Under the pieces are notes generated by a model, which saw only the letters and a list, made by a program, of their open reading frames with translations, was not told the DNA's origin and searched no databases. From sequence record LR699048: a stretch of 64,000 nt of DNA. One strand, given 5' to 3'. This stretch comes from Escherichia phage VpaE1_ev035. Each line of letters starts with the position of its first letter. Position 1 is the first letter of the stretch. Shown here in pieces: positions 5,850 to 59,375 of the stretch. The position numbers and the translations under genes were made by a program.

Positions 5850-6115
5850 CAGAGAATCAAGATACTTTTTACGTAGAAGGGTACTTACTGTTACCACGAC
5901 CAAAAGAAACTTATATGCGAATTGATTTCTTACCAACCATTATGGATAATGTGATGTGCCATATCTTTATGCAAGGTGTCACAGCACAACTTAAGCATGT
6001 TGGTAAAGAGTGCAAAATAAAGGTTGACACTCATCCAGAAATCAAAGAGAATCACTACACATGGTTCTTACCAGACTCTAAAGAAATCTTAGCAGTTCTT
6101 AAAACGAGGAAATGA
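5846..6115 (+). CDS. hypothetical protein
   Basis: ORF track; stop/start overlap with neighbours suggests operon. Confidence 0.45.
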   Translation: MTENQDTFYVEGYLLLPRPKETYMRIDFLPTIMDNVMCHIFMQGVTAQLKHVGKECKIKVDTHPEIKENHYTWFLPDSKEILAVLKTRK

Positions 6116-6426
6116 TTATGCAATTCCAGCCAACAAATCGTGGATTTTCTTATGCAGAATTTAAAGATGCTAAAGGGGAAATTTGTACTTTACAAGAGAG
6201 TTCATCATACGAACCATGTATCTGGTTAGGTGCTAAAGAGGTCTCTGTTCAGTACCTAGATAATGGCTGGAAAACACTTGATATCCCAGCATTAGTTGGT
6301 AAAGATTTTGTAGGTAATCAAAGAATGAAGCTCAATCAGGAACAGGTAAAAGAGTTGTTGCCGTACCTCCAATACTTTGCTGAAAATGGTGAATTACCAA
6401 CAGAGGAACTTACAAATGCAGATTAA
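6112..6426 (+). CDS. hypothetical protein
   Basis: ORF track; overlapping stop/start with upstream ORF. Confidence 0.45.
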   Translation: MIMQFQPTNRGFSYAEFKDAKGEICTLQESSSYEPCIWLGAKEVSVQYLDNGWKTLDIPALVGKDFVGNQRMKLNQEQVKELLPYLQYFAENGELPTEELTNAD

Positions 6427-24649: not shown

Positions 24650-26065
24650 ATGAGCGAATTATTTAAACATGCGCACCTTCATGCAGGTCGAACTGAAAAT
24701 GGTGCTGTAAACCATACTTCATCAATGTCTGCTCTTGTAGACTTTTACAAAGCTGCTGGTTCTAGCCGTAGCAACGTAGAAATCTTACCAGACCTGTTCT
24801 ACAAAGCTTTGCGTGAGGATGTTGATGTTGCAGTTCGTATTTTGCTTCATATGCGAGATGTACGAGAAGGTATGGGTGAGCGTAAAGCCTTCAGAACTGT
24901 TTTGCTTCAAGCAATTGAAGATAAAGTTTTAGAGCCTACACAGGTTCTTCGCATTATGGATAAGATTGCAGAACTTGGTCGTTTTGATGACTTCAAAATC
25001 TTCGTAGGTACTCGTTTCGAGACAGATGCCTTCAAACATTTAGAAGCAGCATTACTAGACCCTGCAACAGCAGGTTTGGCAGCCAAGTGGCTACCACGAG
25101 TCAAACCACGTCATAAGCAGTTTGTAAAACGTTTCTGCAAGTTTGCCAACTTGAGTGAGAAAGAGTACCGCACACTGTTGTCTGCACTATCTGATACAGT
25201 TGAGCAAAAAATCTCTGCTAATGAGTTTGGTAAGATTGACTACAGTAAGATTCCTTCACTTGCTGCTGCACGTTACCAAAACCTGTTTAACCGTAAAGAT
25301 GGAGAGCGTTACAAAGCTTACATCGAGTCCTTATCAAAAGGTGAGACTAAGATTAACGCTGGTGCTGTTTACCCATACGATGTGATTAAATCTGTCAAGT
25401 ATGGTAATGCAGATGTTGCTAATGAGCAGTGGAAATCACTACCAAACTGGATGGCAGAAGGTGAAAACATCTTGTGTATGTCTGATGTATCAAGTTCAAT
25501 GTCTTGGGTGAATTTTGGCTCCATTACTGCTCTGGATATTGGTGTATCACTTGCCTTGTATGTAGCAGAACGCAATACAGGTTGCTTTAAGGATGAGTTG
25601 ATGGTTTATTCAACAAACCCTCACTTCATCGAACTGAGTGGTGATTTACGAAACCGTCATCGTCAGGTGATGCGACACGTTGAATATGGCTCAACCAACT
25701 TACAAGCAGCTTTTGACCGCATTCTTGAGATAGGTAAGAGAAACAACTTGACTCAGGAAGATATGCCAAGTAAGCTTATCATCTTCTCCGATATGGAGTT
25801 CAATCAGGTTGATGGAGCTAACGGTCGTACAAACTTTGAAGCAATTCAGAGCAAGTACAAGAAAGCTGGATATGAGATGCCACAACTGGTATTCTGGTAC
25901 TTAGCAAACCGTAATGGTACTTGCGAAGTGTCTGTTAAGGATAACGGTGTAGCAATGGTATCTGGTTTCTCTCCCGCCACTTTAAAAGCTCTGCTTGGTG
26001 GTGAGAAGTTTGACCCAATCAGCGTAATGCTCAAAGCAGTAATGATTGACCGTTATATCTGGTAA
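24650..26065 (+). CDS. vWA (MIDAS) domain protein with N-terminal helical domain; candidate Ro60/TROVE-like or DUF2828-like protein
   Basis: C-terminal half carries the vWA MIDAS signature in order: CMSDVSSSM (DxSxS), GSTNLQAAF (GxT), LIIFSDMEF (D); N-terminal ~250 aa predicted helical; TROVE assignment is an inference from architecture only. Confidence 0.55.
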   Translation: MSELFKHAHLHAGRTENGAVNHTSSMSALVDFYKAAGSSRSNVEILPDLFYKALREDVDVAVRILLHMRDVREGMGERKAFRTVLLQAIEDKVLEPTQVLRIMDKIAELGRFDDFKIFVGTRFETDAFKHLEAALLDPATAGLAAKWLPRVKPRHKQFVKRFCKFANLSEKEYRTLLSALSDTVEQKISANEFGKIDYSKIPSLAAARYQNLFNRKDGERYKAYIESLSKGETKINAGAVYPYDVIKSVKYGNADVANEQWKSLPNWMAEGENILCMSDVSSSMSWVNFGSITALDIGVSLALYVAERNTGCFKDELMVYSTNPHFIELSGDLRNRHRQVMRHVEYGSTNLQAAFDRILEIGKRNNLTQEDMPSKLIIFSDMEFNQVDGANGRTNFEAIQSKYKKAGYEMPQLVFWYLANRNGTCEVSVKDNGVAMVSGFSPATLKALLGGEKFDPISVMLKAVMIDRYIW

Positions 26066-26083: not shown

Positions 26084-26112
26084 TTGACAATGTGTTTAAT
26101 ACCCTTTAATAT
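26084..26112 (+). promoter_or_regulatory. sigma70-like promoter (TTGACA-N17-TAATAT) embedded in a palindrome, upstream of the tRNA array
   Basis: -35 26084-26089, -10 26107-26112; inverted repeat AGGGTAT/ATACCCT brackets the -35 and spacer. Confidence 0.5.
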
Positions 26113-26174
26113 GTTCTACATAGAAACGAAATGAGAGCTTTTCTAAGATACTGAAAAATATTTTAAAAAAGTTC

Positions 26175-26203
26175 TTGACAATCACTAAAAAATAATGTTA
26201 AAG
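26175..26203 (+). promoter_or_regulatory. possible second promoter (TTGACA-N17-TTAAAG, weak -10)
   Basis: Consensus -35 at 26175-26180, poor -10. Confidence 0.25.
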
Positions 26204-26230
26204 TGGTTACATAGAGTTTGAAAAGTTTAT

Positions 26231-26307
26231 CTCTGTTTAGCTCAGCTTGGTAGAGCGTTCCGTTTGGGGCGGTAAGGCCGGAGGTTCAAGTCCTCCAACA
26301 GAGACCA
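26231..26307 (+). tRNA. tRNA-Pro (anticodon UGG)
   Basis: Manual cloverleaf: acceptor CTCTGTT/AACAGAG (C1-G72), D-arm AGCTCAGCTTGGTAGAGC, loop UUUGGGG, T-arm GGAGG-TTCAAGT-CCTCC, encoded CCA. Confidence 0.75.
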
Positions 26308-26314
26308 AATTAAT

Positions 26315-26392
26315 GTTCCAGTGGACAAAATGGTAAAGTCACCACTCTTTCAAAGTGGATATTTGAGGGTTCAAATCCCTTCTGGAACGCCA
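26315..26392 (+). tRNA. tRNA-Glu (anticodon UUC)
   Basis: Acceptor GTTCCAG/CTGGAAC, anticodon stem CCACT/AGTGG with loop CUUUCAA, T-loop TTCAAAT, CCA. Confidence 0.75.
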
Positions 26393-26397
26393 GTTTT

Positions 26398-26475
26398 GAC
26401 AGAAGACCAATTACAGCAAGTTTAATCTTATTCATCTGAAGGTAAATCGGACAAAGAAGAGATTTGGTCTGGTCA
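26398..26475 (+). ncRNA. conserved structured tRNA-spacer element, copy 1
   Basis: 5' box GACAGAAGACCAATTACAGCAAG and 3' box TTTGGTCTGGTC fold as lower helix GAC/GUC, internal loop AGA opposite G, upper helix AGACCAA/UUGGUCU; ~43-nt apical region. Confidence 0.45.
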
Positions 26476-26483
26476 TTAAGAAT

Positions 26484-26560
26484 TGCGGGTATAGAGAAAT
26501 GGCGTCTCACATGTCTCATTAGCATGGTATCGGCAGGTTCGACTCCTGCACCCGCCTCCA
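26484..26560 (+). tRNA. tRNA-Met or Ile2 (anticodon CAU), non-canonical 1:72 pair
   Basis: Anticodon stem CATGT/GCATG, loop CUCAUUA; T-arm GCAGG-TTCGACT-CCTGC; acceptor pairs 6/7 with position 1 unpaired; CCA. Confidence 0.55.
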
Positions 26561-26564
26561 ATTT

Positions 26565-26629
26565 TGCAGAAGACCGTATTCAGCAACAAAATACTTTTTG
26601 CGGATAAAAGAAAAAACACGGTCTGGCAA
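26565..26629 (+). ncRNA. conserved structured tRNA-spacer element, copy 2
   Basis: 5' box TGCAGAAGACCGTATTCAGCAAC, 3' box ACACGGTCTGGCA; lower helix UGC/GCA (compensatory vs copy 1), same AGA/G internal loop, upper helix AGACCGU/ACGGUCU. Confidence 0.45.
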
Positions 26630-26637
26630 TGTATTAA

Positions 26638-26714
26638 GGTTAGGAAGCACATAAGGTATGTGCGGTCGCCTGTTAAGCGAATGGCACAGGGTTCGAATCC
26701 CTGACTAACCGCCA
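26638..26714 (+). tRNA. tRNA-Asn (anticodon GUU)
   Basis: Acceptor GGTTAGG/ACTAACC, D-stem GCAC/GTGC, loop CUGUUAA, T-arm CAGGG-TTCGAAT-CCCTG, CCA. Confidence 0.75.
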
Positions 26715-26783
26715 AATTTAGGAGAGAAGCGATTGCTCACCGATTTGTAAGGTGCAAGTCCTTAGCCTGAATAGAAATTAAAT

Positions 26784-26871
26784 GTGTCGTTATCCCGTAG
26801 ATGGTAGCGGTGGGGACTGTAAATCCCTTGTCATTGAGACTCGGTAGGTTCGACTCCTACACGGCACACCA
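26784..26871 (+). tRNA. tRNA-Tyr (anticodon GUA), long variable arm
   Basis: Acceptor GTGTCGT/ACGGCAC, anticodon stem GGGA/TCCC with loop CUGUAAA, ~16-nt variable arm, T-arm GTAGG-TTCGACT-CCTAC, CCA. Confidence 0.7.
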
Positions 26872-26876
26872 ATAAA

Positions 26877-26954
26877 GGTTATGTAGTTTAATTTGGTTAA
26901 AATACTCCCCTGTCACGGGAGATGATGAGGGTTCAAATCCCTTCGTAACCGCCA
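26877..26954 (+). tRNA. tRNA-Asp (anticodon GUC)
   Basis: Acceptor GGTTATG/CGTAACC, anticodon stem CTCCC/GGGAG with loop CUGUCAC, T-loop TTCAAAT, CCA. Confidence 0.75.
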
Positions 26955-27012
26955 ATTTTGAGAGGGCTATTTAGCCCCTCCCTTAAAGGGTTCTTACGAG
27001 TATCCTTTAAAG

Positions 27013-27092
27013 GAGCAGAAGACCAAATACAGCAAGTTACTTAAAATTTCAAGCCAATTTAATTTTGAAAAATTTAAAACTTGGTCTGGCTC
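27013..27092 (+). ncRNA. conserved structured tRNA-spacer element, copy 3
   Basis: 5' box GAGCAGAAGACCAAATACAGCAAG, 3' box CTTGGTCTGGCTC; lower helix GAGC/GCUC, AGA/G internal loop, upper helix AGACCAA/UUGGUCU. Confidence 0.45.
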
Positions 27093-27097
27093 AACAA

Positions 27098-27236
27098 ATT
27101 TACAGAAGACCGTTTACAGCAAAACTTAAACAATCTATTTCTCGGTAAAGAAAAGGCGAAGGTTCGATTCCTTCACTCGGCAGATGTCGAGTTGGTGTAA
27201 TGGTAGCACTTAAGATGATAAACAACGGTCTGGTAA
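27098..27236 (+). ncRNA. conserved structured tRNA-spacer element, copy 4, enclosing a circularly permuted tRNA-like module (Y RNA/YrlA-like architecture)
   Basis: 5' box TTTACAGAAGACCGTTTACAGCAA, 3' box AACGGTCTGGTAA (lower helix UUAC/GUAA, upper helix 8 bp); apical region 27158-27210 holds T-arm GAAGG-TTCGATT-CCTTC, then acceptor 3' strand ACTCGGC joined by a short loop to acceptor 5' strand GTCGAGT, then D-arm GTG-TAATGGTAG-CAC; no anticodon arm. Confidence 0.45.
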
Positions 27237-27382
27237 TTATCTTTGTAGATAAGTTATTAAGCTTACCTGTGAGTATGCGACCACAAAGGGTGAAAGGGTA
27301 AATTCTAGATTTAAACCCAAAAAGGCACATCGCTACAGACCTTAAGCAAGTCTGGGTAGCTTATCTACAAAGATAATTTAAT

Positions 27383-27458
27383 GGAAGTGTAGCAGAATGG
27401 TGATGCGGCAGACTTTTAATCTGACAGGCGATGGGTTCGAATCCCTCCACTTCTACCA
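27383..27458 (+). tRNA. tRNA-Lys (anticodon UUU)
   Basis: Acceptor GGAAGTG/CACTTCT, loop CUUUUAA, T-loop TTCGAAT, CCA; T-stem has mismatches. Confidence 0.6.
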
Positions 27459-27462
27459 ATAT

Positions 27463-27539
27463 GGTTCAGTCGCAGATAAGGTAATGCAAGGGTCTCGTAA
27501 GCCCTATGAATGTGGGTTCGAATCCCATCTGAACCTCCA
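27463..27539 (+). tRNA. tRNA-Thr (anticodon CGU)
   Basis: Acceptor GGTTCAG/CTGAACC, anticodon stem AGGGT/GCCCT with loop CUCGUAA, T-arm GTGGG-TTCGAAT-CCCAT, CCA. Confidence 0.7.
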
Positions 27540-27541
27540 AT

Positions 27542-27616
27542 TGTGGGTTAGCATAAATGGTAATGCAAACGGCTGATAACCGTTAGAAGAGGGTTCGATA
27601 CCCTCACCTACAACCA
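27542..27616 (+). tRNA. tRNA-Ile (anticodon GAU)
   Basis: Acceptor TGTGGGT/ACCTACA, anticodon stem AACGG/CCGTT with loop CUGAUAA, T-arm GAGGG-TTCGATA-CCCTC, CCA. Confidence 0.7.
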
Positions 27617-27631
27617 AGTTCAATAAAGTTG

Positions 27632-27660
27632 TTGACATTGAGATGTGACTACTTTATAGT
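27632..27660 (+). promoter_or_regulatory. sigma70-like promoter inside tRNA array (TTGACA-N17-TATAGT)
   Basis: -35 27632-27637, 17-nt spacer, -10 27655-27660. Confidence 0.5.
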
Positions 27661-27864
27661 AACCTTAGTTTTCGTTGCGTAGCGTCTATTTTGCAAATTT
27701 AAAATAAATGCAAACGACAATGTTTTTCTGGCAGTAGCTTGATAGGCTAAACACCAGTGAGGTCTTCCAATCCCTCATCAAAGAATTTGGCGTACTCGCC
27801 CACGGTATGATTAATAAGGTGGGCATCTTTAAGGGCTTTCTAAGAGAGTCTTTAAAGATAATTA

Positions 27865-27946
27865 CGGGGCGTATCTCAGCGGTCTTCTAAACCGCCGTTA
27901 ACCGAGTAAGTGGAGTATGCGGGTTCGAGTCCTGCCGCCTCGACCA
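27865..27946 (+). tRNA. tRNA-Arg-like (anticodon UCU) with aberrant D-arm and enlarged variable region
   Basis: Acceptor CGGGGCG/CGCCTCG, anticodon stem GCGGT/ACCGC with loop CUUCUAA, T-arm GCGGG-TTCGAGT-CCTGC, CCA; D-region does not fold canonically. Confidence 0.45.
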
Positions 27947-28089
27947 ATTTAGTTAGCAGATTACTTAGACGACCTAAGCGGGTCTTCCTGTAGGGAGGTG
28001 GTCTGTATCTCATGTTTTCCAGAACATGTAAATAATCTGAGAAGGGGCTTTACAGTGTTGAGATAATACGGTAAGCTTCGAATTATAGT

Positions 28090-28172
28090 ATGGGACGATG
28101 TTAAGACTCTAAGGCATGAGCAACGGCCTCCAAAACCGTTTCAAAGGGGTTCAACTCCTCCGTCCCATGCCA
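28090..28172 (+). tRNA. tRNA-Trp (anticodon CCA) with expanded D-region
   Basis: Perfect 7-bp acceptor ATGGGAC/GTCCCAT, anticodon loop CUCCAAA (as in E. coli tRNA-Trp), T-loop TTCAACT, CCA; ~6 extra nt before the anticodon stem. Confidence 0.5.
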
Positions 28173-28185
28173 AAGTCTTATTAGG

Positions 28186-28275
28186 GGTAGGTAGCGGCTA
28201 ATGGTAGCCAAACTGTCTTGAAAACAGTTGCCACTGTAGAGATACGGTGAGGGTTCGACTCCTTTACTTACCGCC
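28186..28275 (+). tRNA. tRNA-Ser (anticodon UGA), long variable arm, CCA apparently not encoded
   Basis: Acceptor GGTAGGT/ACTTACC, D-stem GGC/GCC, anticodon stem ACTGT/ACAGT with loop CUUGAAA, long variable arm, T-loop TTCGACT. Confidence 0.6.
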
Positions 28276-28531
28276 TAATAAGATTTAAAGCCAAGCTTCA
28301 TTCGGATGTTGCTTTGGTATCCCTCGTGTATTGTCGTACACGCACAGTAAAGCACCTAGTAGGTGTCACGGAGAAGAGATAATATCAAGCTCTCCAAAGG
28401 TTCTAGTCACCGGATTAAACAAGACTATGCAAAGACCAAATTAGGTCTTTTTAGAGGGCTTCTAAGGTTATTACAGCTTGTTGTGGAACCTTGTTGCTTA
28501 GGTTCTTAGAAGTTCTCTAAAAAGATTTAAT

Positions 28532-28609
28532 GGGAGATTGATGGTAATTGGTAAACCTATCTCGCTTAGAACGAGATGTTTGAGGGTTCGAATCCCTTGT
28601 CTCCTACCA
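28532..28609 (+). tRNA. tRNA with Leu anticodon UAG but short variable arm (type-I architecture)
   Basis: Acceptor GGGAGAT/GTCTCCT, anticodon stem TCTCG/CGAGA with loop CUUAGAA, 5-nt variable loop, T-arm GAGGG-TTCGAAT-CCCTT, A73, CCA. Confidence 0.55.
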
Positions 28610-28616
28610 AATTAAT

Positions 28617-28692
28617 GCAGGTGTAGCAAAATGGTTATGCGGCTGACTCTTAATCAGTAAGACGATGGGTTCAATTCCCTCCACCTGTACCA
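28617..28692 (+). tRNA. tRNA-Lys (anticodon CUU)
   Basis: Acceptor GCAGGTG/CACCTGT, anticodon stem GCTGA/TCAGT with loop CUCUUAA, T-loop TTCAATT, CCA. Confidence 0.55.
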
Positions 28693-28698
28693 AAAAAT

Positions 28699-28774
28699 GG
28701 GGTCATAGTTTATATGGTTAAAATTCGAGTTTTGCAAACTTGGGAACTGAGTTCAATTCTCAGTGACTCCACCA
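28699..28774 (+). tRNA. tRNA-Ala (anticodon UGC)
   Basis: Acceptor GGGGTCA/TGACTCC, loop UUUGCAA, T-arm CTGAG-TTCAATT-CTCAG, CCA. Confidence 0.7.
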
Positions 28775-28780
28775 ATTAGT

Positions 28781-28855
28781 GCATCCATAGTTTAAACGGG
28801 AAAATTACAGTCTTCCAAACTGAGGTTGAGGGTTCGATTCCCTCTGGATGCTCCA
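28781..28855 (+). tRNA. tRNA-Gly (anticodon UCC)
   Basis: Perfect acceptor GCATCCA/TGGATGC, loop CUUCCAA, T-arm GAGGG-TTCGATT-CCCTC, CCA. Confidence 0.75.
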
Positions 28856-28861
28856 AATAAT

Positions 28862-28937
28862 GCTCCTATCGTATAATTGGCTATTACGGTTGCCTTGTAA
28901 GCAACTTATCAGGGTTCGAATCCTTGTGGGAGCACCA
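28862..28937 (+). tRNA. tRNA-Thr (anticodon UGU)
   Basis: Acceptor GCTCCTA/TGGGAGC, anticodon stem GTTGC/GCAAC with loop CUUGUAA, T-arm CAGGG-TTCGAAT-CCTTG, CCA. Confidence 0.75.
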
Positions 28938-29032
28938 ATTCAGAGGTCAAGTGAAAGACCGCTGGTGTCAACTGAAGACCGTAACAAATTCCACGGAGTT
29001 GAGTTAGCGGCACAACTTCAGACCTCTTTCAC
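28938..29032 (+). ncRNA. candidate structured RNA between tRNA-Thr(UGU) and tRNA-Val
   Basis: Multiple complementary segments (GAGGTC/GACCTC, GTGAAAG/CTTTCAC, CTGAAG/CTTCAG); contains a GAAGACCG box related to the spacer elements; no tRNA fold. Confidence 0.3.
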
Positions 29033-29107
29033 ACTCGCTTAGTTTATATGGTAAAACATCACCCTTACAAGATGAAGAAAAAGGTTCAAGTCCTTTAGTG
29101 AGTACCA
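29033..29107 (+). tRNA. tRNA-Val (anticodon UAC)
   Basis: Acceptor ACTCGCT/AGTGAGT, loop CUUACAA, T-arm AAAGG-TTCAAGT-CCTTT, CCA. Confidence 0.65.
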
Positions 29108-29108
29108 T

Positions 29109-29186
29109 GTTCCAGTATCCCAATTGGCAGAGGATGCAAGCTCAAACCTTGTACTAGTGACGGTTCGAATCCGTCTTGGAACACCA
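29109..29186 (+). tRNA. tRNA with Leu anticodon CAA but short variable arm (type-I architecture)
   Basis: Acceptor GTTCCAG/TTGGAAC, anticodon stem GCAAG/CTTGT with loop CUCAAAC, T-arm GACGG-TTCGAAT-CCGTC, A73, CCA. Confidence 0.55.
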
Positions 29187-29191
29187 ATTTT

Positions 29192-29267
29192 GCAGGATTA
29201 GTTCAAATGGATAGAGCAACAGTCTACGAAGCTGTTAATAGGGGTTCGAATCCCTTATCCTGCACCA
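29192..29267 (+). tRNA. tRNA-Arg (anticodon ACG)
   Basis: Perfect acceptor GCAGGAT/ATCCTGC, D-arm GTTCAAATGGATAGAGC, loop CUACGAA, T-arm AGGGG-TTCGAAT-CCCTT, CCA. Confidence 0.8.
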
Positions 29268-29285
29268 GATAAGCAAGAGGAATTT

Positions 29286-29528
29286 ATGCAAACATTAATC
29301 GTCGTTGAACATGAAAATTCCAATAGTATTGAGTTTGTAAGGGTTCCCACTATAGATACCCACATTTTCTTAAAAGTCGGATGGGAATGCGACCCAATAA
29401 AAGTAGAAAGATTTATTGGTCATTGCTTTGGTGGAAGACAACTTAAAAGTGTCAATTTTGAGACAATGTTACCAGAAAGCTCAGAAACAAGTAATAATGC
29501 TTACCTCCTTACGAGGGTTAGACAATGA
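29286..29528 (+). CDS. hypothetical protein (inside tRNA array)
   Basis: ORF track, ATG with AGAGG RBS. Confidence 0.4.
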   Translation: MQTLIVVEHENSNSIEFVRVPTIDTHIFLKVGWECDPIKVERFIGHCFGGRQLKSVNFETMLPESSETSNNAYLLTRVRQ

Positions 29529-30082
29529 GATACTTAAAATATGCTTCATGGATTTTCTTAGCTTTGCTAGAACCACTTGCAGCAATACTAGCAGTTATCT
29601 TAGCACCTTTCGTAGTTCCATTCTACAGTGAGAAGAAAGGACATCTACCTTTTGGATTCAGATGGATGGAGACCTATGACAACCCAATTGATGGTGATGA
29701 AGGTCACGTTAAAAGATGGGCTAATATTAGATGGATTGGTAAACTAGGTGTCTACATGCAAAGAGTTGGATGGCTCTGGAGAAACAAAGCTTATAACTTC
29801 TCTTACCATGTGTTAGGAAGAGATGTAAAAGATGTTACTAAGTGGAAAGGTAATATCAACGTAAGTTCTAACCCTGAAGATAATCAGACTGGTTATCTCC
29901 TAATGTGGAACAGGAATGCTTGGGGATTATTCGCTTTTATCCCATCAATTAAAATCTTTGGTAAACAATTTTACTGGAGAATTTATATTGGATGGAAACT
30001 AAAAAGTGTTGTCCCAGAAGAAAGAGCATTCTCAAGGGAAAGAGTTATGTTGGCATTCTTTATTCATCCACTGAGAAAGTAA
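29525..30082 (+). CDS. hypothetical membrane protein (inside tRNA array)
   Basis: N-terminal hydrophobic segment IFLALLEPLAAILAVILAPFVV; Trp-rich. Confidence 0.45.
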   Translation: MRYLKYASWIFLALLEPLAAILAVILAPFVVPFYSEKKGHLPFGFRWMETYDNPIDGDEGHVKRWANIRWIGKLGVYMQRVGWLWRNKAYNFSYHVLGRDVKDVTKWKGNINVSSNPEDNQTGYLLMWNRNAWGLFAFIPSIKIFGKQFYWRIYIGWKLKSVVPEERAFSRERVMLAFFIHPLRK

Positions 30083-30090
30083 AGATTTAA

Positions 30091-30166
30091 AGGGGATTAG
30101 TTTACAAGGTTAAAACCTCGGTCTTTGAAATCGAAGAAGTTGGTTCAATTCCAACATCCCCCGCCA
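30091..30166 (+). tRNA. tRNA-Gln (anticodon UUG)
   Basis: Acceptor AGGGGAT/ATCCCCC (1:72 unpaired), anticodon stem TCGGT/ATCGA with loop CUUUGAA, T-arm GTTGG-TTCAATT-CCAAC, CCA. Confidence 0.65.
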
Positions 30167-30168
30167 AT

Positions 30169-30247
30169 GCTCCATTACTCCAATTGGCAGAGAGGCCAGA
30201 CTTAAAATCTGTGTTATGTATCGGTTCGAATCCGATATGGAGTACCA
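30169..30247 (+). tRNA. tRNA with Leu anticodon UAA but short variable arm (type-I architecture)
   Basis: Acceptor GCTCCAT/ATGGAGT, anticodon stem CCAGA/TCTGT with loop CUUAAAA, T-arm ATCGG-TTCGAAT-CCGAT, A73, CCA. Confidence 0.55.
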
Positions 30248-30252
30248 AATTT

Positions 30253-30328
30253 AGCGGTATAGCATAACTGGCAATGCAGCAGTCTCTGAAGCTGTCTTAT
30301 TAAGGTTCAAATCCTTATGCCGCTGCCA
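30253..30328 (+). tRNA. tRNA-Gln (anticodon CUG)
   Basis: Acceptor AGCGGTA/TGCCGCT, anticodon stem GCAGT/GCTGT (two G-U pairs) with loop CUCUGAA, T-arm TAAGG-TTCAAAT-CCTTA, CCA. Confidence 0.6.
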
Positions 30329-30359
30329 CTTCTAAGGGTTCTTACGAGAGTCCTTAAAT

Positions 30360-30435
30360 GTGGCCTTATCATAAATGGTAATGACCCATGCTGTGAACAT
30401 GGTCTATACGGGTTCAAATCCCGTAGGTCACCCCA
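30360..30435 (+). tRNA. tRNA-His (anticodon GUG)
   Basis: Acceptor GTGGCCT/AGGTCAC, perfect anticodon stem CCATG/CATGG with loop CUGUGAA, T-arm ACGGG-TTCAAAT-CCCGT, discriminator C73, CCA. Confidence 0.75.
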
Positions 30436-30440
30436 ATTTA

Positions 30441-30517
30441 TAGTCCAAGTAGCTTATATGGTTAAAGCGCGTGTCTGAAAAACATGAGAAGAGGGTTCAA
30501 ATCCCACTGGACTACCA
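30441..30517 (+). tRNA. tRNA-Phe (anticodon GAA)
   Basis: Acceptor TAGTCCA/TGGACTA, anticodon stem CGTGT/ACATG with loop CUGAAAA, T-loop TTCAAAT; exact ends uncertain. Confidence 0.6.
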
Positions 30518-30533
30518 ATTTCAAAGGTGCTTA

Positions 30534-31268
30534 ATGAAAGAGATGACAGAACAAGGTAAGGAGATTTTTAATCTCTTAAAAACTGGTAAAGGGTTCTCTA
30601 ATCCCCTTATTACTGGTGCAGCAGTTCTCGGTGGAACCGTAGCTGCCTCTATATCACTTGTAAGCTCTATTAGCTCTGTAACAGACCCTACAATAAAAGA
30701 TAAACTTGTTGCTGCTGGACTTACAACAGTTCTGCTTAACAGCTTTACAACGAGTCTGACAAGCACTACATCAACTACCAAAACGCTAACGGATTATGGT
30801 CAAAAATCCATTGATGAGTTTTCATCACGTATGCAGGTAGCAAAAGGTTATTCTAATGTTATGGGTGCAGCAGGGGAGCAAGTTGGTTGTACACCGTTTA
30901 GTGGTATTATGGGCGTTGCTACAGAATATGGTCAAAAAGCTATTGACACAATTAACAGTGCACTAGATGGCGTTAATGATGTGTTAAGTGACTTACAAGA
31001 TGCTATTGATAATGGTCTTGATACTGTTTCTGATTTAGCTAACCAAGCTGTCAGTAAGATTAATGAAGGTATCTCAAAGATTACAGCTTATGCAGATGAA
31101 GTTGTGCAGATGATTGAAGAAGAGGCTGCCCTTATTGCAGAGTACCTTAAAACGAATATCAATGGGTTCTTAGCAGGTATCTTACCAGACTGGTTTGATG
31201 ATGCCTGTAAAACTGGTGTAATTGACACTATTGCAACACCAGAAATGAAGAGCGCATTACAGAAATAA
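30534..31268 (+). CDS. hypothetical protein (inside tRNA array)
   Basis: ORF track frame 30471..31268 starts inside tRNA-Phe; first ATG after the tRNA at 30534; Ser/Thr/Ala-rich with helical C-terminus. Confidence 0.5.
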   Translation: MKEMTEQGKEIFNLLKTGKGFSNPLITGAAVLGGTVAASISLVSSISSVTDPTIKDKLVAAGLTTVLLNSFTTSLTSTTSTTKTLTDYGQKSIDEFSSRMQVAKGYSNVMGAAGEQVGCTPFSGIMGVATEYGQKAIDTINSALDGVNDVLSDLQDAIDNGLDTVSDLANQAVSKINEGISKITAYADEVVQMIEEEAALIAEYLKTNINGFLAGILPDWFDDACKTGVIDTIATPEMKSALQK

Positions 31269-31269
31269 T

Positions 31270-31360
31270 GGAAGATTAACCCTAAAAGGTAAGGGAGCAG
31301 TTTGCTAAACTGCCAGTAGCTGAGAAATCGGTGTACCAGTTCAAGTCTGGTATCTTCCTC
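31270..31360 (+). tRNA. tRNA-Ser (anticodon GCU), long variable arm
   Basis: Perfect acceptor GGAAGAT/ATCTTCC, D-stem CCC/GGG, perfect anticodon stem GCAGT/ACTGC with loop UUGCUAA, ~20-nt variable arm, T-arm ACCAG-TTCAAGT-CTGGT, CCA. Confidence 0.8.
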
Positions 31361-31367
31361 CAATTTT

Positions 31368-31443
31368 GAATCCGTGACAGAAATGGATATGTGCCTGTCT
31401 GCAAAACAGGTTTATAAGGGTTCAAGTCCCTTCGGATTCTCCA
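31368..31443 (+). tRNA. tRNA-Cys (anticodon GCA)
   Basis: Perfect acceptor GAATCCG/CGGATTC, perfect anticodon stem CCTGT/ACAGG with loop CUGCAAA, T-arm AAGGG-TTCAAGT-CCCTT, CCA. Confidence 0.8.
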
Positions 31444-59165: not shown

Positions 59166-59258
59166 TCACCCTACCAGACCCTACCAGACCAGACCTTACC
59201 CTACCAGACCCTACCGAACATCACTTAAAAACCCTCTTAGAAGACTCTTAAGTGATGT

Positions 59259-59297
59259 AATCGAATTTTAATGTAGCTCCGATTAACTACCCATACC
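59259..59297. repeat. hairpin element copy 2 (AATCG-AATTTTAATGTAGCTC-CGATT + AACTACCCATACC)
   Basis: Same loop and tail as copy 1 but stem arms changed in a compensatory way. Confidence 0.55.
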
Positions 59298-59375
59298 TCA
59301 CCTCACCCAACCATACCATGCCTTGCCAGACCGCACCTTACCTCATTAAAAGACCCTCTTAAAAGACCTTTTAAA

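Follow-up and report, generated by a model that had tools for sequence, protein, structure and literature searches.

A probable YrlA-type tRNA mimic in the tRNA array of Escherichia phage VpaE1_ev035 and its putative Ro60-like DUF2828 partner

A spacer within the transfer RNA (tRNA) array of Escherichia phage VpaE1_ev035 (sequence record LR699048; the whole 64,000-nucleotide (nt) stretch that was analyzed is called the window throughout) contains a stem-closed RNA of about 137 nt, located at 27100-27236 on the + strand and called module d below, which encloses a conserved, tRNA-shaped domain without an anticodon arm. A gene of the DUF2828 family whose product has a predicted Ro60 fold lies adjacent to it, and this kind of RNA and this kind of gene were observed to co-occur across phyla. 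Taken together, these observations make it probable that the element is a tRNA mimic of the YrlA/Y-RNA type, lacking the anticodon arm, and the putative partner of the DUF2828 protein. Since the element lies just downstream of the Ro60-like gene, it is probably the "Y RNA" which had been suspected for that protein, while any particular downstream mechanism is held with considerably less confidence than the identity of the element.

Anatomy of the element

The first-pass annotation of this DNA, which was made without database searches, had described a permuted order of T-arm, acceptor 3' strand, loop, acceptor 5' strand, and D-arm, and this order was borne out at 27158-27209. From 5' to 3' on the + strand, the module consists of a T-arm, GAAGG-UUCGAUU-CCUUC, at 27158-27174 (stem strands 27158-27162 and 27170-27174, loop 27163-27169); an acceptor-like hairpin, ACUCGGC-AGAU-GUCGAGU, at 27175-27192 (strands 27175-27181 and 27186-27192); and a unit at 27193-27209 made up of U8 and G9 (27193-27194) and the D-arm, GUGU-AAUGGUA-GCAC (27195-27209). 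All seven acceptor-like pairs form, one of them as G-U, just as had been described, and the loop capping them, previously given as 6 nt, is the 4-nt AGAU at 27182-27185; the D-arm is present as well, with a stem of 4 base pairs (bp) including a U-G in place of the 3 bp first assigned to it. A further hairpin, UUUCU-CGGUAA-AGAAA at 27138-27153 (+ strand), falls inside the range covered by the first-pass annotation and was not described there. It sits at the position of a variable arm and was identified from folds, and Mordin, KMM4, and Lolly9 have a predicted hairpin of other sequence in the corresponding position.

It had also been claimed that the module has no anticodon arm, that no CCA follows it, and that it is not a canonical tRNA gene. 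Both of the first two points agree with the sequence; as for the third, ARAGORN called neither a tRNA nor a transfer-messenger RNA (tmRNA) at the module, and the Rfam tRNA model made no call there, with the T-arm fragment alone scoring 14.9 bits. The residues which make the universal tertiary (elbow) contacts of tRNA are kept in the module, namely U8, A14, G18, G19, A21, G53, U54, U55, C56, A58, and C61.

The folding that had been suggested as a check showed that both minimum free energy (MFE) and consensus folds close 27100-27236 around the module. The outer stem (27100-27103 with 27233-27236) is separated by an internal loop, AGA at 27104-27106 opposite G 27232, from an inner stem in which AGACCGUU (27107-27114) pairs with AACGGUCU (27224-27231), so that the closing helix reads UUAC-AGA-AGACCGUU / AACGGUCU-G-GUAA and is followed by the motif UACAGCAA at 27115-27122. 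The arrangement of a variable-arm (V) hairpin, a T-arm, a loop-capped acceptor stem, and a D-arm within an end-pairing stem supports the YrlA-like reading proposed for this RNA at the outset.

The same closing stem and motif, without the tRNA-like insert, are found on the + strand in three further modules of the array spacers, identified by stem and motif. Module a (26397-26475), between tRNA-Glu and tRNA-Met, reads UGAC-AGA-AGACCAA-UUACAGCAA...UUGGUCU-G-GUCA and is a small stem-plus-motif RNA, YrlB-like; module b (26564-26629) reads UUGC-AGA-AGACCGU-AUUCAGCAA...ACGGUCU-G-GCAA; and module c (27013-27092) reads GAGC-AGA-AGACCAA-AUACAGCAA...UUGGUCU-G-GCUC. Constant in all four modules are C-AGA-AGACC, GGUCU-G-G, and CAGCAA, and the outer four pairs covary among them (UGAC/GUCA, UUGC/GCAA, GAGC/GCUC, and UUAC/GUAA for a to d, respectively).

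Conservation, covariation, and comparison with chance

Conservation of the spacer was seen in 251 phage records. As relatives, 16 distinct versions were compared, taken from genomes of Felixounavirus, Mooglevirus, and Suspvirus and from contigs of IMG/VR. Across these relatives, the percentage of pair cells that were paired was 99.8%, in comparison to 36% to 52% when the partners were slid. The T-arm and D-arm stems were invariant in 16 of 16; a single change was seen in the T-loop of one relative (UUCAAUU, in Sf14), and the D-arm unit varied at one D-loop position. The acceptor-like hairpin occurs in three lineage variants, ACUCGGC/GUCGAGU, ACACGU/GCGUGU, and ACCCUUC/GAAGGGU, all of which are paired, with both-sided changes at three of the seven pairs and with 100% of cells paired. 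The module is under selection as structure. An intact orthologous tRNA at this site in relatives had been named beforehand as the finding that would speak for a decayed ordinary tRNA; among the relatives compared, no ordinary tRNA was found at the module's site, and the permuted module was kept instead.

A strict descriptor (T-arm, perfect hairpin, U8, and D-arm) matched once in the window, with both strands searched, in comparison to one match in 40 shuffles that were approximately dinucleotide-preserving. A covariance model, R1, was built from four non-Felix phage cores, a MAFFT alignment of seven diverse cores having misaligned two of them. The top match of R1 in the window was 27154-27213, with a score of 29.4 bits (E ~1e-5) and every pair standard, and held-out true members scored 26 to 28 bits.

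The neighboring Ro60-like protein

The presumed partner of the RNA is a 471-amino-acid protein encoded at 24650-26065 on the + strand, in a gene that ends 1035 nt upstream of the RNA element on the same strand. Its Pfam matches are to DUF2828 and DUF7788 (6e-29 and 4e-44), with a weak match to VWA_2 and a C-terminal vWA domain; the Pfam scan of the protein gave no match to the TROVE profile, and an NCBIfam scan gave nothing useful. It belongs to PHROG 850, which carries the label "RNA-binding protein", and the label for the DUF2828 family in SEA-PHAGES is "Ro-like RNA binding protein". An AlphaFold model computed with 43 homologues as input had a predicted local distance difference test (pLDDT) score of 88 and a predicted template modeling (pTM) score of 0.88. 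When this model was compared by Foldseek with the Protein Data Bank (PDB), the top 10 matches were all full-length Ro60/TROVE structures (E 3e-8 to 2e-6, TM 0.47 to 0.64), and included 1YVR, 2I91, 2NVO, 9NFA, 9KOP, and 9L5Y, covering Xenopus and human Ro60, D. radiodurans Rsr, and the Ro60 of Thermus phage phiLo. The motif of the metal ion-dependent adhesion site (MIDAS) is intact, with D279, S281, S283, T349, and D381 invariant in the 43 homologues. The product of 24650-26065 is accordingly predicted to have the Ro60-type architecture of a HEAT-repeat ring and a vWA/MIDAS domain. The Bas63 orthologue, gp130, was described in the PhageMaP preprint as structurally Ro60-like and as countering the Ppl defense, and the authors of that work guessed that Y RNAs are hidden among these tRNA genes and located none (PMC11482910).

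Comparison with YrlA and other Y RNAs

YrlA (RF02553) begins with a 5' GNCGAAN0-1G motif, followed by V, T, acceptor-like (AS), and D stem-loops, of which AS is conserved as structure only (PMC4201824). Its gene lies on the strand that also encodes Ro60 and no more than 4 kb away, a further Y RNA of smaller size usually being present as well (Chen et al. 2014, PMC4201824), and it has been reported in 22 phages, including mycobacteriophages with a TROVE-type Ro60; that 2014 survey covered only genomes with an annotated TROVE protein (PMC4201824). Binding by Ro60/Rsr, pseudouridine 55 (TruB), and dihydrouridine (DusA) are further characteristics of YrlA. The element in the window resembles YrlA in several respects. 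Its stem-loops come in the order V, T, AS, and D and are enclosed by pairing of the 5' and 3' ends; its T- and D-arms hardly vary and are tRNA-like, AS being kept in structure and not in sequence; shorter, YrlB-like RNAs (modules a to c) accompany it; and sister elements in other DUF2828 phages reach significant, although sub-threshold, scores on the YrlA model. Its genomic context is comparable to that of YrlA insofar as a same-strand gene less than 4 kb away encodes a protein of predicted Ro60 fold, a protein that belongs to DUF2828 and has no match to Ro60 in sequence. The element differs from YrlA in that its conserved ends are an AG-stem, UACAGCAA, and CU-G, that its partner is a DUF2828/DUF7788 and not a Pfam TROVE protein, and that it lies within a tRNA array. 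At gathering thresholds, Rfam found tRNAs only in the whole window, and a scan of the spacer at E <= 10 found no YrlA, Y RNA, or tmRNA.

With metazoan Y RNAs and with Yrn1 and Yrn2 of D. radiodurans, the element shares a terminal helix that is bulged or internally looped, which is the presumed protein-binding module, with a variable effector domain attached to it; the Ro60 or Rsr partner of those RNAs is likewise a ring protein with a vWA/MIDAS domain, as is predicted for the protein in the window. The sequence of the putative binding site in the window differs from theirs, and the topology of Yrn1 is the opposite one, an anticodon-like arm separating its T- and D-arms. Thermus phage phiLo (PMC12135203; 9KOP, 9L5Y) similarly encodes a protein of Ro60 fold with adjacent small structured RNAs, Yrl1 and Yrl2, and its Ro60 structures are among the top matches to the model of the window protein. 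The phiLo protein, however, is a canonical TROVE Ro60 whose RNAs were found via CGAA motifs, whereas the RNAs in the window have no CGAA motif.

The same pairing in distant phages

By tblastn, the DUF2828 protein family was found in 708 phage records, with hosts including Mycobacterium, Listeria, Staphylococcus, Campylobacter, and Vibrio, and of the six loci inspected in named phages, four have tRNA genes next to the DUF2828 gene. Modules with the T-arm, hairpin, and D-arm layout were identified 290 nt downstream of the DUF2828 gene in Klebsiella phage FBKp34 (L034:6730-6788) and 150 nt downstream of gp54, a DUF2828 gene, in Mycobacterium phage Lolly9 (L038:6568-6623), and by descriptor scan in the metagenomic contigs L057 (two copies), L066, L077, and L109. 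The stem sequences of these modules are unrelated, and the modules are enclosed by a stem-plus-motif of the ACAGCAA type (L066 has the variant CCGCAA). On the Rfam YrlA model, the Lolly9, FBKp34, and L057 copies scored 37.7 bits (E 8e-7), 39.6 bits (3e-5), and 38.2 bits (8e-5), respectively, which are below the gathering threshold of 69 and are clearly significant. The descriptor matches in L081 and L082 were dropped because ARAGORN showed them to be tRNA-tRNA junctions.

The closing module is a more general signature than the tRNA-like insert. Among diverse IMG/VR loci, a stem-plus-CAGCAA module adjoins the DUF2828 gene on the gene's own strand in 47 of 65, in comparison to 7 of 65 on the opposite strand. 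The signature was read in six named phages of five host genera: in the Lolly9, FBKp34, Listeria, Campylobacter, Aeromonas, and Vibrio phages, one to three short gene-strand stems flank DUF2828, each of them followed by ACAGCAA. The consensus can be written as (U)AG[G/A]-stem, (U)U[A/U]CAGCAA, variable interior, and stem-[C/U]CU-G(U), and modules a to d of the window fit it, their stem beginning with AG, (U)UACAGCAA coming straight after its 5' strand, and the 3' strand ending in CU and then G. In KVP40-like Vibrio phages, the ribosome-binding site and start codon of the DUF2828 gene itself are overlapped by such a module; in V09, a phage of this kind, a stem-plus-UUACAGCAA module at L035:4966-5005 forms the 5' leader of the DUF2828 gene, with the start codon within the 3' strand and the ribosome-binding site within the loop; it resembles an autoregulatory operator, which is what would be expected if the protein binds the motif and regulates its own synthesis. 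In L109:6328-6428 and L104:6191-6315, the docking modules enclose a D-arm, anticodon arm, and T-arm in their natural order (the form comparable in this respect to Yrn1), with the closing stem replacing the acceptor stem, and L109:6328-6428 scored 55.7 bits on positions 5-66 of the Rfam tRNA model.

Some other arrangements were seen in these loci. At L059:2216-2319, the acceptor-like hairpin is missing and the D-arm comes immediately after the T-arm. At L034:7003-7116 in FBKp34 and at L077:5895-6015 and 6025-6137, otherwise normal tRNA genes carry an insert of about 40 nt. Only the insert of the FBKp34 tRNA-Asp was read; it separates the D-arm from the anticodon arm and contains a hairpin and then UUACAGCA. 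These insert-bearing tRNAs appear to be tRNAs fused to half a docking module. Three Aeromonas-phage-like loci (L086:7840-7913, L092:8006-8079, and L111:7607-7681) have T-arm, hairpin, and D-arm candidates about 2.2 to 2.7 kb downstream of DUF2828, with ACAGCA inside the long hairpin loop of L086 only and not in that of L092 or L111; the L086 site is not an ARAGORN tRNA junction. An RNA ligase 2 gene is present in the DUF2828 locus of the Aeromonas phage. In Listeria phage LP-048, a ROOL RNA (RF03087, 90 bits, just under gathering) is found at L039:3427-3978, about 1 kb upstream of DUF2828 in the tRNA region, and genes for RtcB, for an RNA ligase, and for a "tRNA amidotransferase" follow a few kb downstream.

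Resemblance to Dictyostelium Class I RNAs

Class I RNAs begin with a 5' AAG and end with a 3' CUGU; a short stem of free sequence joins the two ends, the 11-nt CCUUACAGCAA comes right after its 5' strand, and the interior is variable (PMC7919456). They are 42 to 65 nt long, have their own DUSE promoters, and have been reported as missing from organisms other than Dictyostelia (Kjellin et al. 2021, PMC7919456). The closing module of a to d has every one of these defining features, that is, a 5' AG, an end stem, (CC)UUACAGCAA, a variable interior, and a 3' CUG(U). The Class I model of Rfam, RF01414, gave ten full-length matches of 15 to 29 bits (nine of them at 23 to 29), each on an independently identified module. 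In the window these were module b, with the best score of 24.0 bits (E 0.018), and module c, with 15.3 bits; elsewhere they were two FBKp34 modules and one Listeria phage module (23 to 25 bits) and five of seven further metagenomic loci (26 to 29 bits). All of the phage scores are under the RF01414 gathering threshold of 41.5. The two kinds of RNA differ further in that module d has 137 nt, a tRNA-like insert, a position in a phage tRNA array, and sigma-70-like promoters, while Class I RNAs have no tRNA-like insert.

Over 700 phages that have been sequenced, from Proteobacteria, Actinobacteria, Firmicutes, and Campylobacterota, encode DUF2828 Ro60-like proteins. We tentatively suggest, as a possibility which we would not put at even odds, that the module belongs, as its tRNA-mimicking member, to a large and so far undescribed family of small phage RNAs (AG-stem, UUACAGCAA, 3' CUG(U)) that are the cognate "Y RNAs" of these proteins, and that Class I RNAs are related to, or have converged on, the ligand bound by a Ro paralogue of the DUF2828 type. 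Eukaryotic members of Pfam DUF2828 exist, and plants are mentioned in the literature. The only known direct binder of Class I RNAs is the RNA recognition motif (RRM) protein Rnp1A; DDB_G0281243, whose function is unassigned, is one of four proteins that co-purified with DdR-21, a Class I RNA, and would be a candidate Class I partner if the suggestion of a DUF2828 ligand is right. No domain description of DDB_G0281243 was found in the Class I supplements and literature.

Interpretation, mechanism, and alternative explanations

Several of the results weigh against reading the element as a YrlA-type tRNA mimic with a Ro60-like partner. The YrlA model search recommended in the first-pass annotation returned nothing for the window copy, with zero matches to RF02553 at E <= 10 (gathering threshold 69 bits), and GNCGAAN0-1G, the putative Ro60 contact, is absent from 27098-27140, with UACAGCAA in the equivalent place. 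The 15:48 Levitt pair is not kept (A15 is opposite C or A at 48), which is a further difference from YrlA. A sequence search of the PDB, with the single protein as query and with the 43-homologue profile, found no Ro60, so that the kinship of the protein with Ro60 is one of predicted fold only. The covariation in the Felix group comes from three lineages and thus represents few independent events. The gap of R1 between the element and adjacent-tRNA junctions is only about 2 bits (29.4 in comparison to 27.2); the R1 test is supportive rather than decisive, perfect acceptor-like pairing being the real discriminator, and because true modules are not cleanly separable from tRNA-tRNA junctions, the list of R1 matches was not used as a census. 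Lastly, the element was lost in two natural isolates, Salmonella phage SP116 and Escherichia phage ESCO49, and for this reason it is regarded as accessory and not essential. Relative to 26955-27470 of the window, SP116 has the T-loop of module d joined to the T-loop of tRNA-Lys with everything between them lost, and in ESCO49 tRNA-Asp, module c, and most of module d are gone. The T-loops seem to be recombination hot spots in the array.

The array consists of 25 tRNA genes identified by ARAGORN on the + strand at 26231-31443, every one of which encodes CCA, and zero tmRNA genes were found in the window; the spacer of the element comprises the 428 nt from tRNA-Asp (end 26954) to tRNA-Lys (start 27383). 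Just 5' of the array, two sigma-70-like promoters were recognized on the + strand at 26084-26204 by consensus matches only, TTGACA-17-TAATAT at 26084 and TTGACA-18-TAAAGT at 26175, each with 10 of 12 matches. Because no + strand terminator was found between these promoters and the next promoter-like site (27632), modules a to d are presumably co-transcribed with the tRNAs, and, judging from the sequence, the two promoters are the likely start of the transcript carrying the element. No Felixounavirus transcriptome was found in the literature search.

Under the YrlA-type reading, the RNA would be transcribed from the promoters at 26084 and 26175 within the tRNA-array precursor and freed as the flanking tRNAs are processed. 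The bulged helix of its paired ends, together with the single-stranded UACAGCAA, may then serve as a docking site for the Ro60-like ring protein (24650-26065), and modules a, b, and c would be the same docking module minus the tRNA mimic, in parallel to the bacterial pairs of YrlA and YrlB. After docking, the mimic, L-shaped, would show an anticodon-less tRNA surface, and could recruit a tRNA-recognizing host enzyme to the protein as a Y RNA tethers PNPase to Rsr, or alternatively could gate the access of the protein to damaged or misfolded tRNAs. The complex might serve tRNA quality control, repair, or counter-defense during infection, the Bas63 orthologue being one that counters Ppl. Salmonella carries an rsr-yrlBA-rtcBA operon. 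The suggestion of RNA repair is drawn from that gene order, from the RtcB and RNA ligase genes of the Listeria locus and the RNA ligase 2 gene of the Aeromonas locus, and from the view of Iyer et al. that phage TROVE proteins are RNA-repair platforms with a tRNA-like partner (PMC7824862).

Four other explanations were weighed. The first is that the element is a tRNA-shaped signal for processing or stability, by which tRNA-processing enzymes (RNase P, RNase Z) cut or protect a long spacer with no Ro-like partner involved. Such a signal would suit an element which lies within a tRNA array in a single transcription unit, which is dispensable in two isolates, and which has a 7-bp acceptor-like stem, the feature enabling RNase P cleavage of the M. 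smegmatis YrlA (PMC4201824). We nevertheless consider it unlikely, as it fails to explain both the DUF2828-adjacent modules outside tRNA arrays (Lolly9, L057, and L066) and the bulged stem plus ACAGCAA that is common to modules without the tRNA shape. The second explanation, that the mimic is a free-standing decoy which titrates a host factor or defense effector recognizing the tRNA elbow or acceptor stem and needs no Ro-like protein, draws on the intact elbow-forming residues and on the link between phage tRNA arrays and the evasion of tRNA-targeting defenses (literature cited in PMC11482910). An RNA without an anticodon arm, however, cannot decoy anticodon nucleases, modifiers of the acceptor end are unlikely targets in the absence of a CCA end unless the loop is cleaved, and the docking module common to paralogues that are not tRNA-like argues for a shared protein partner, so that a pure decoy is rather improbable.

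That the element is a decayed or rearranged tRNA, the functionless debris of recombination between neighboring tRNA genes, is very improbable. T-loop recombination is real in the array, as the fusion in SP116 demonstrates, and adjacent-tRNA junctions do resemble the module to the covariance model, but debris would not be expected to show invariant T- and D-arm stems or compensatory changes that keep the acceptor-like hairpin paired in three genera; besides, no relative has an intact tRNA at the site, and unrelated phages have either evolved or retained the same layout.

In permuted tmRNA genes, as in the permuted tRNA genes of red algae (Cyanidioschyzon), the T-arm comes first, then the two acceptor strands with the 3' strand ahead of the 5' strand and a linker between them, and finally the D-arm, which is the gene order of the window element. 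An aminoacylatable RNA from a gene of either kind, circularly permuted tRNA or two-piece (permuted) tmRNA, was all the same rejected as essentially refuted, since the RNAs of such genes are cut at the linker, aminoacylated, and end in CCA, while the element has a linker of only 4 nt that serves as a capping loop, no anticodon arm, no CCA in an array where every tRNA encodes it, and no tag reading frame, and since ARAGORN, which detects permuted tmRNA, found nothing and the Rfam models tmRNA and tmRNA_permuted (RF04321) had no match.

Relation to earlier work

Already known are tRNA-like Y RNAs, phage Ro60 proteins, and the Ro60-like fold of a DUF2828 protein (from the preprint and from phage annotation). 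In the literature searched, we did not find the RNA itself, its four-copy organization in the tRNA array, the ACAGCAA docking signature, the systematic association of RNA modules with DUF2828, or the likeness to Class I RNAs, and for the ACAGCAA motif no relevant paper was among the literature matches listed. The guess of the PhageMaP authors, with Y RNAs among the tRNA genes of Felix-O1-like phages and the anti-Ppl gp130 as partner, is made testable by the coordinates, secondary structure, and candidate binding motif given here. The results also extend tRNA-mimicking Y RNAs beyond TROVE-annotated genomes, with DUF2828 as a second and much larger phage family, whose association with tRNA and RNA-repair genes suggests that an RNA-protein machine serving tRNA surveillance or counter-defense is widespread. 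A possible protein partner for Class I RNAs, an abundant class whose function has been under question since 2004, is suggested by the stem-plus-UUACAGCAA signature which they share with the phage modules.

Other features of the locus

The source genome is of the Felixounavirus type, and its tRNA region is 95% to 97% identical to that of phages EC6, Z31, and many others. Two further conserved hairpins, nearly invariant in three genera, lie directly 3' of tRNA-Asp at 26958-27010; the first is G+C-rich, GAGGGC-UAUUUA-GCCCCUC, and the second is near-palindromic, CCUUAAAGG...CCUUUAAAGG. Directly 3' of module d, a 145-nt hairpin occupies 27235-27378, with a closing stem of more than 19 bp (AUUAUCUUUGUAGAUAAG / CUUAUCUACAAAGAUAAU) and a folding energy of -48.3 kcal/mol, which is much stabler than shuffles (z = -5.5). 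Compensatory changes in its stem were seen in Mooglevirus and Suspvirus, the region is replaced in some Felixounaviruses, and zero Rfam matches were found for it. A mini-hairpin in its interior, CUAC-AGAC-CUUAAGCAA-GUCU-GG-GUAG, is an echo of the docking module.

At 27865-27943, the Rfam tRNA model scored 31.7 bits with no ARAGORN call, and relatives annotate tRNA-Arg (UCU) there, so the site may hold a tRNA that has diverged or is in decay. On the minus strand at 59174-59332, and unrelated to the tRNA array, GGTCTGG occurs five times within 160 nt, the whole window having 18 copies in comparison to about 4 expected.

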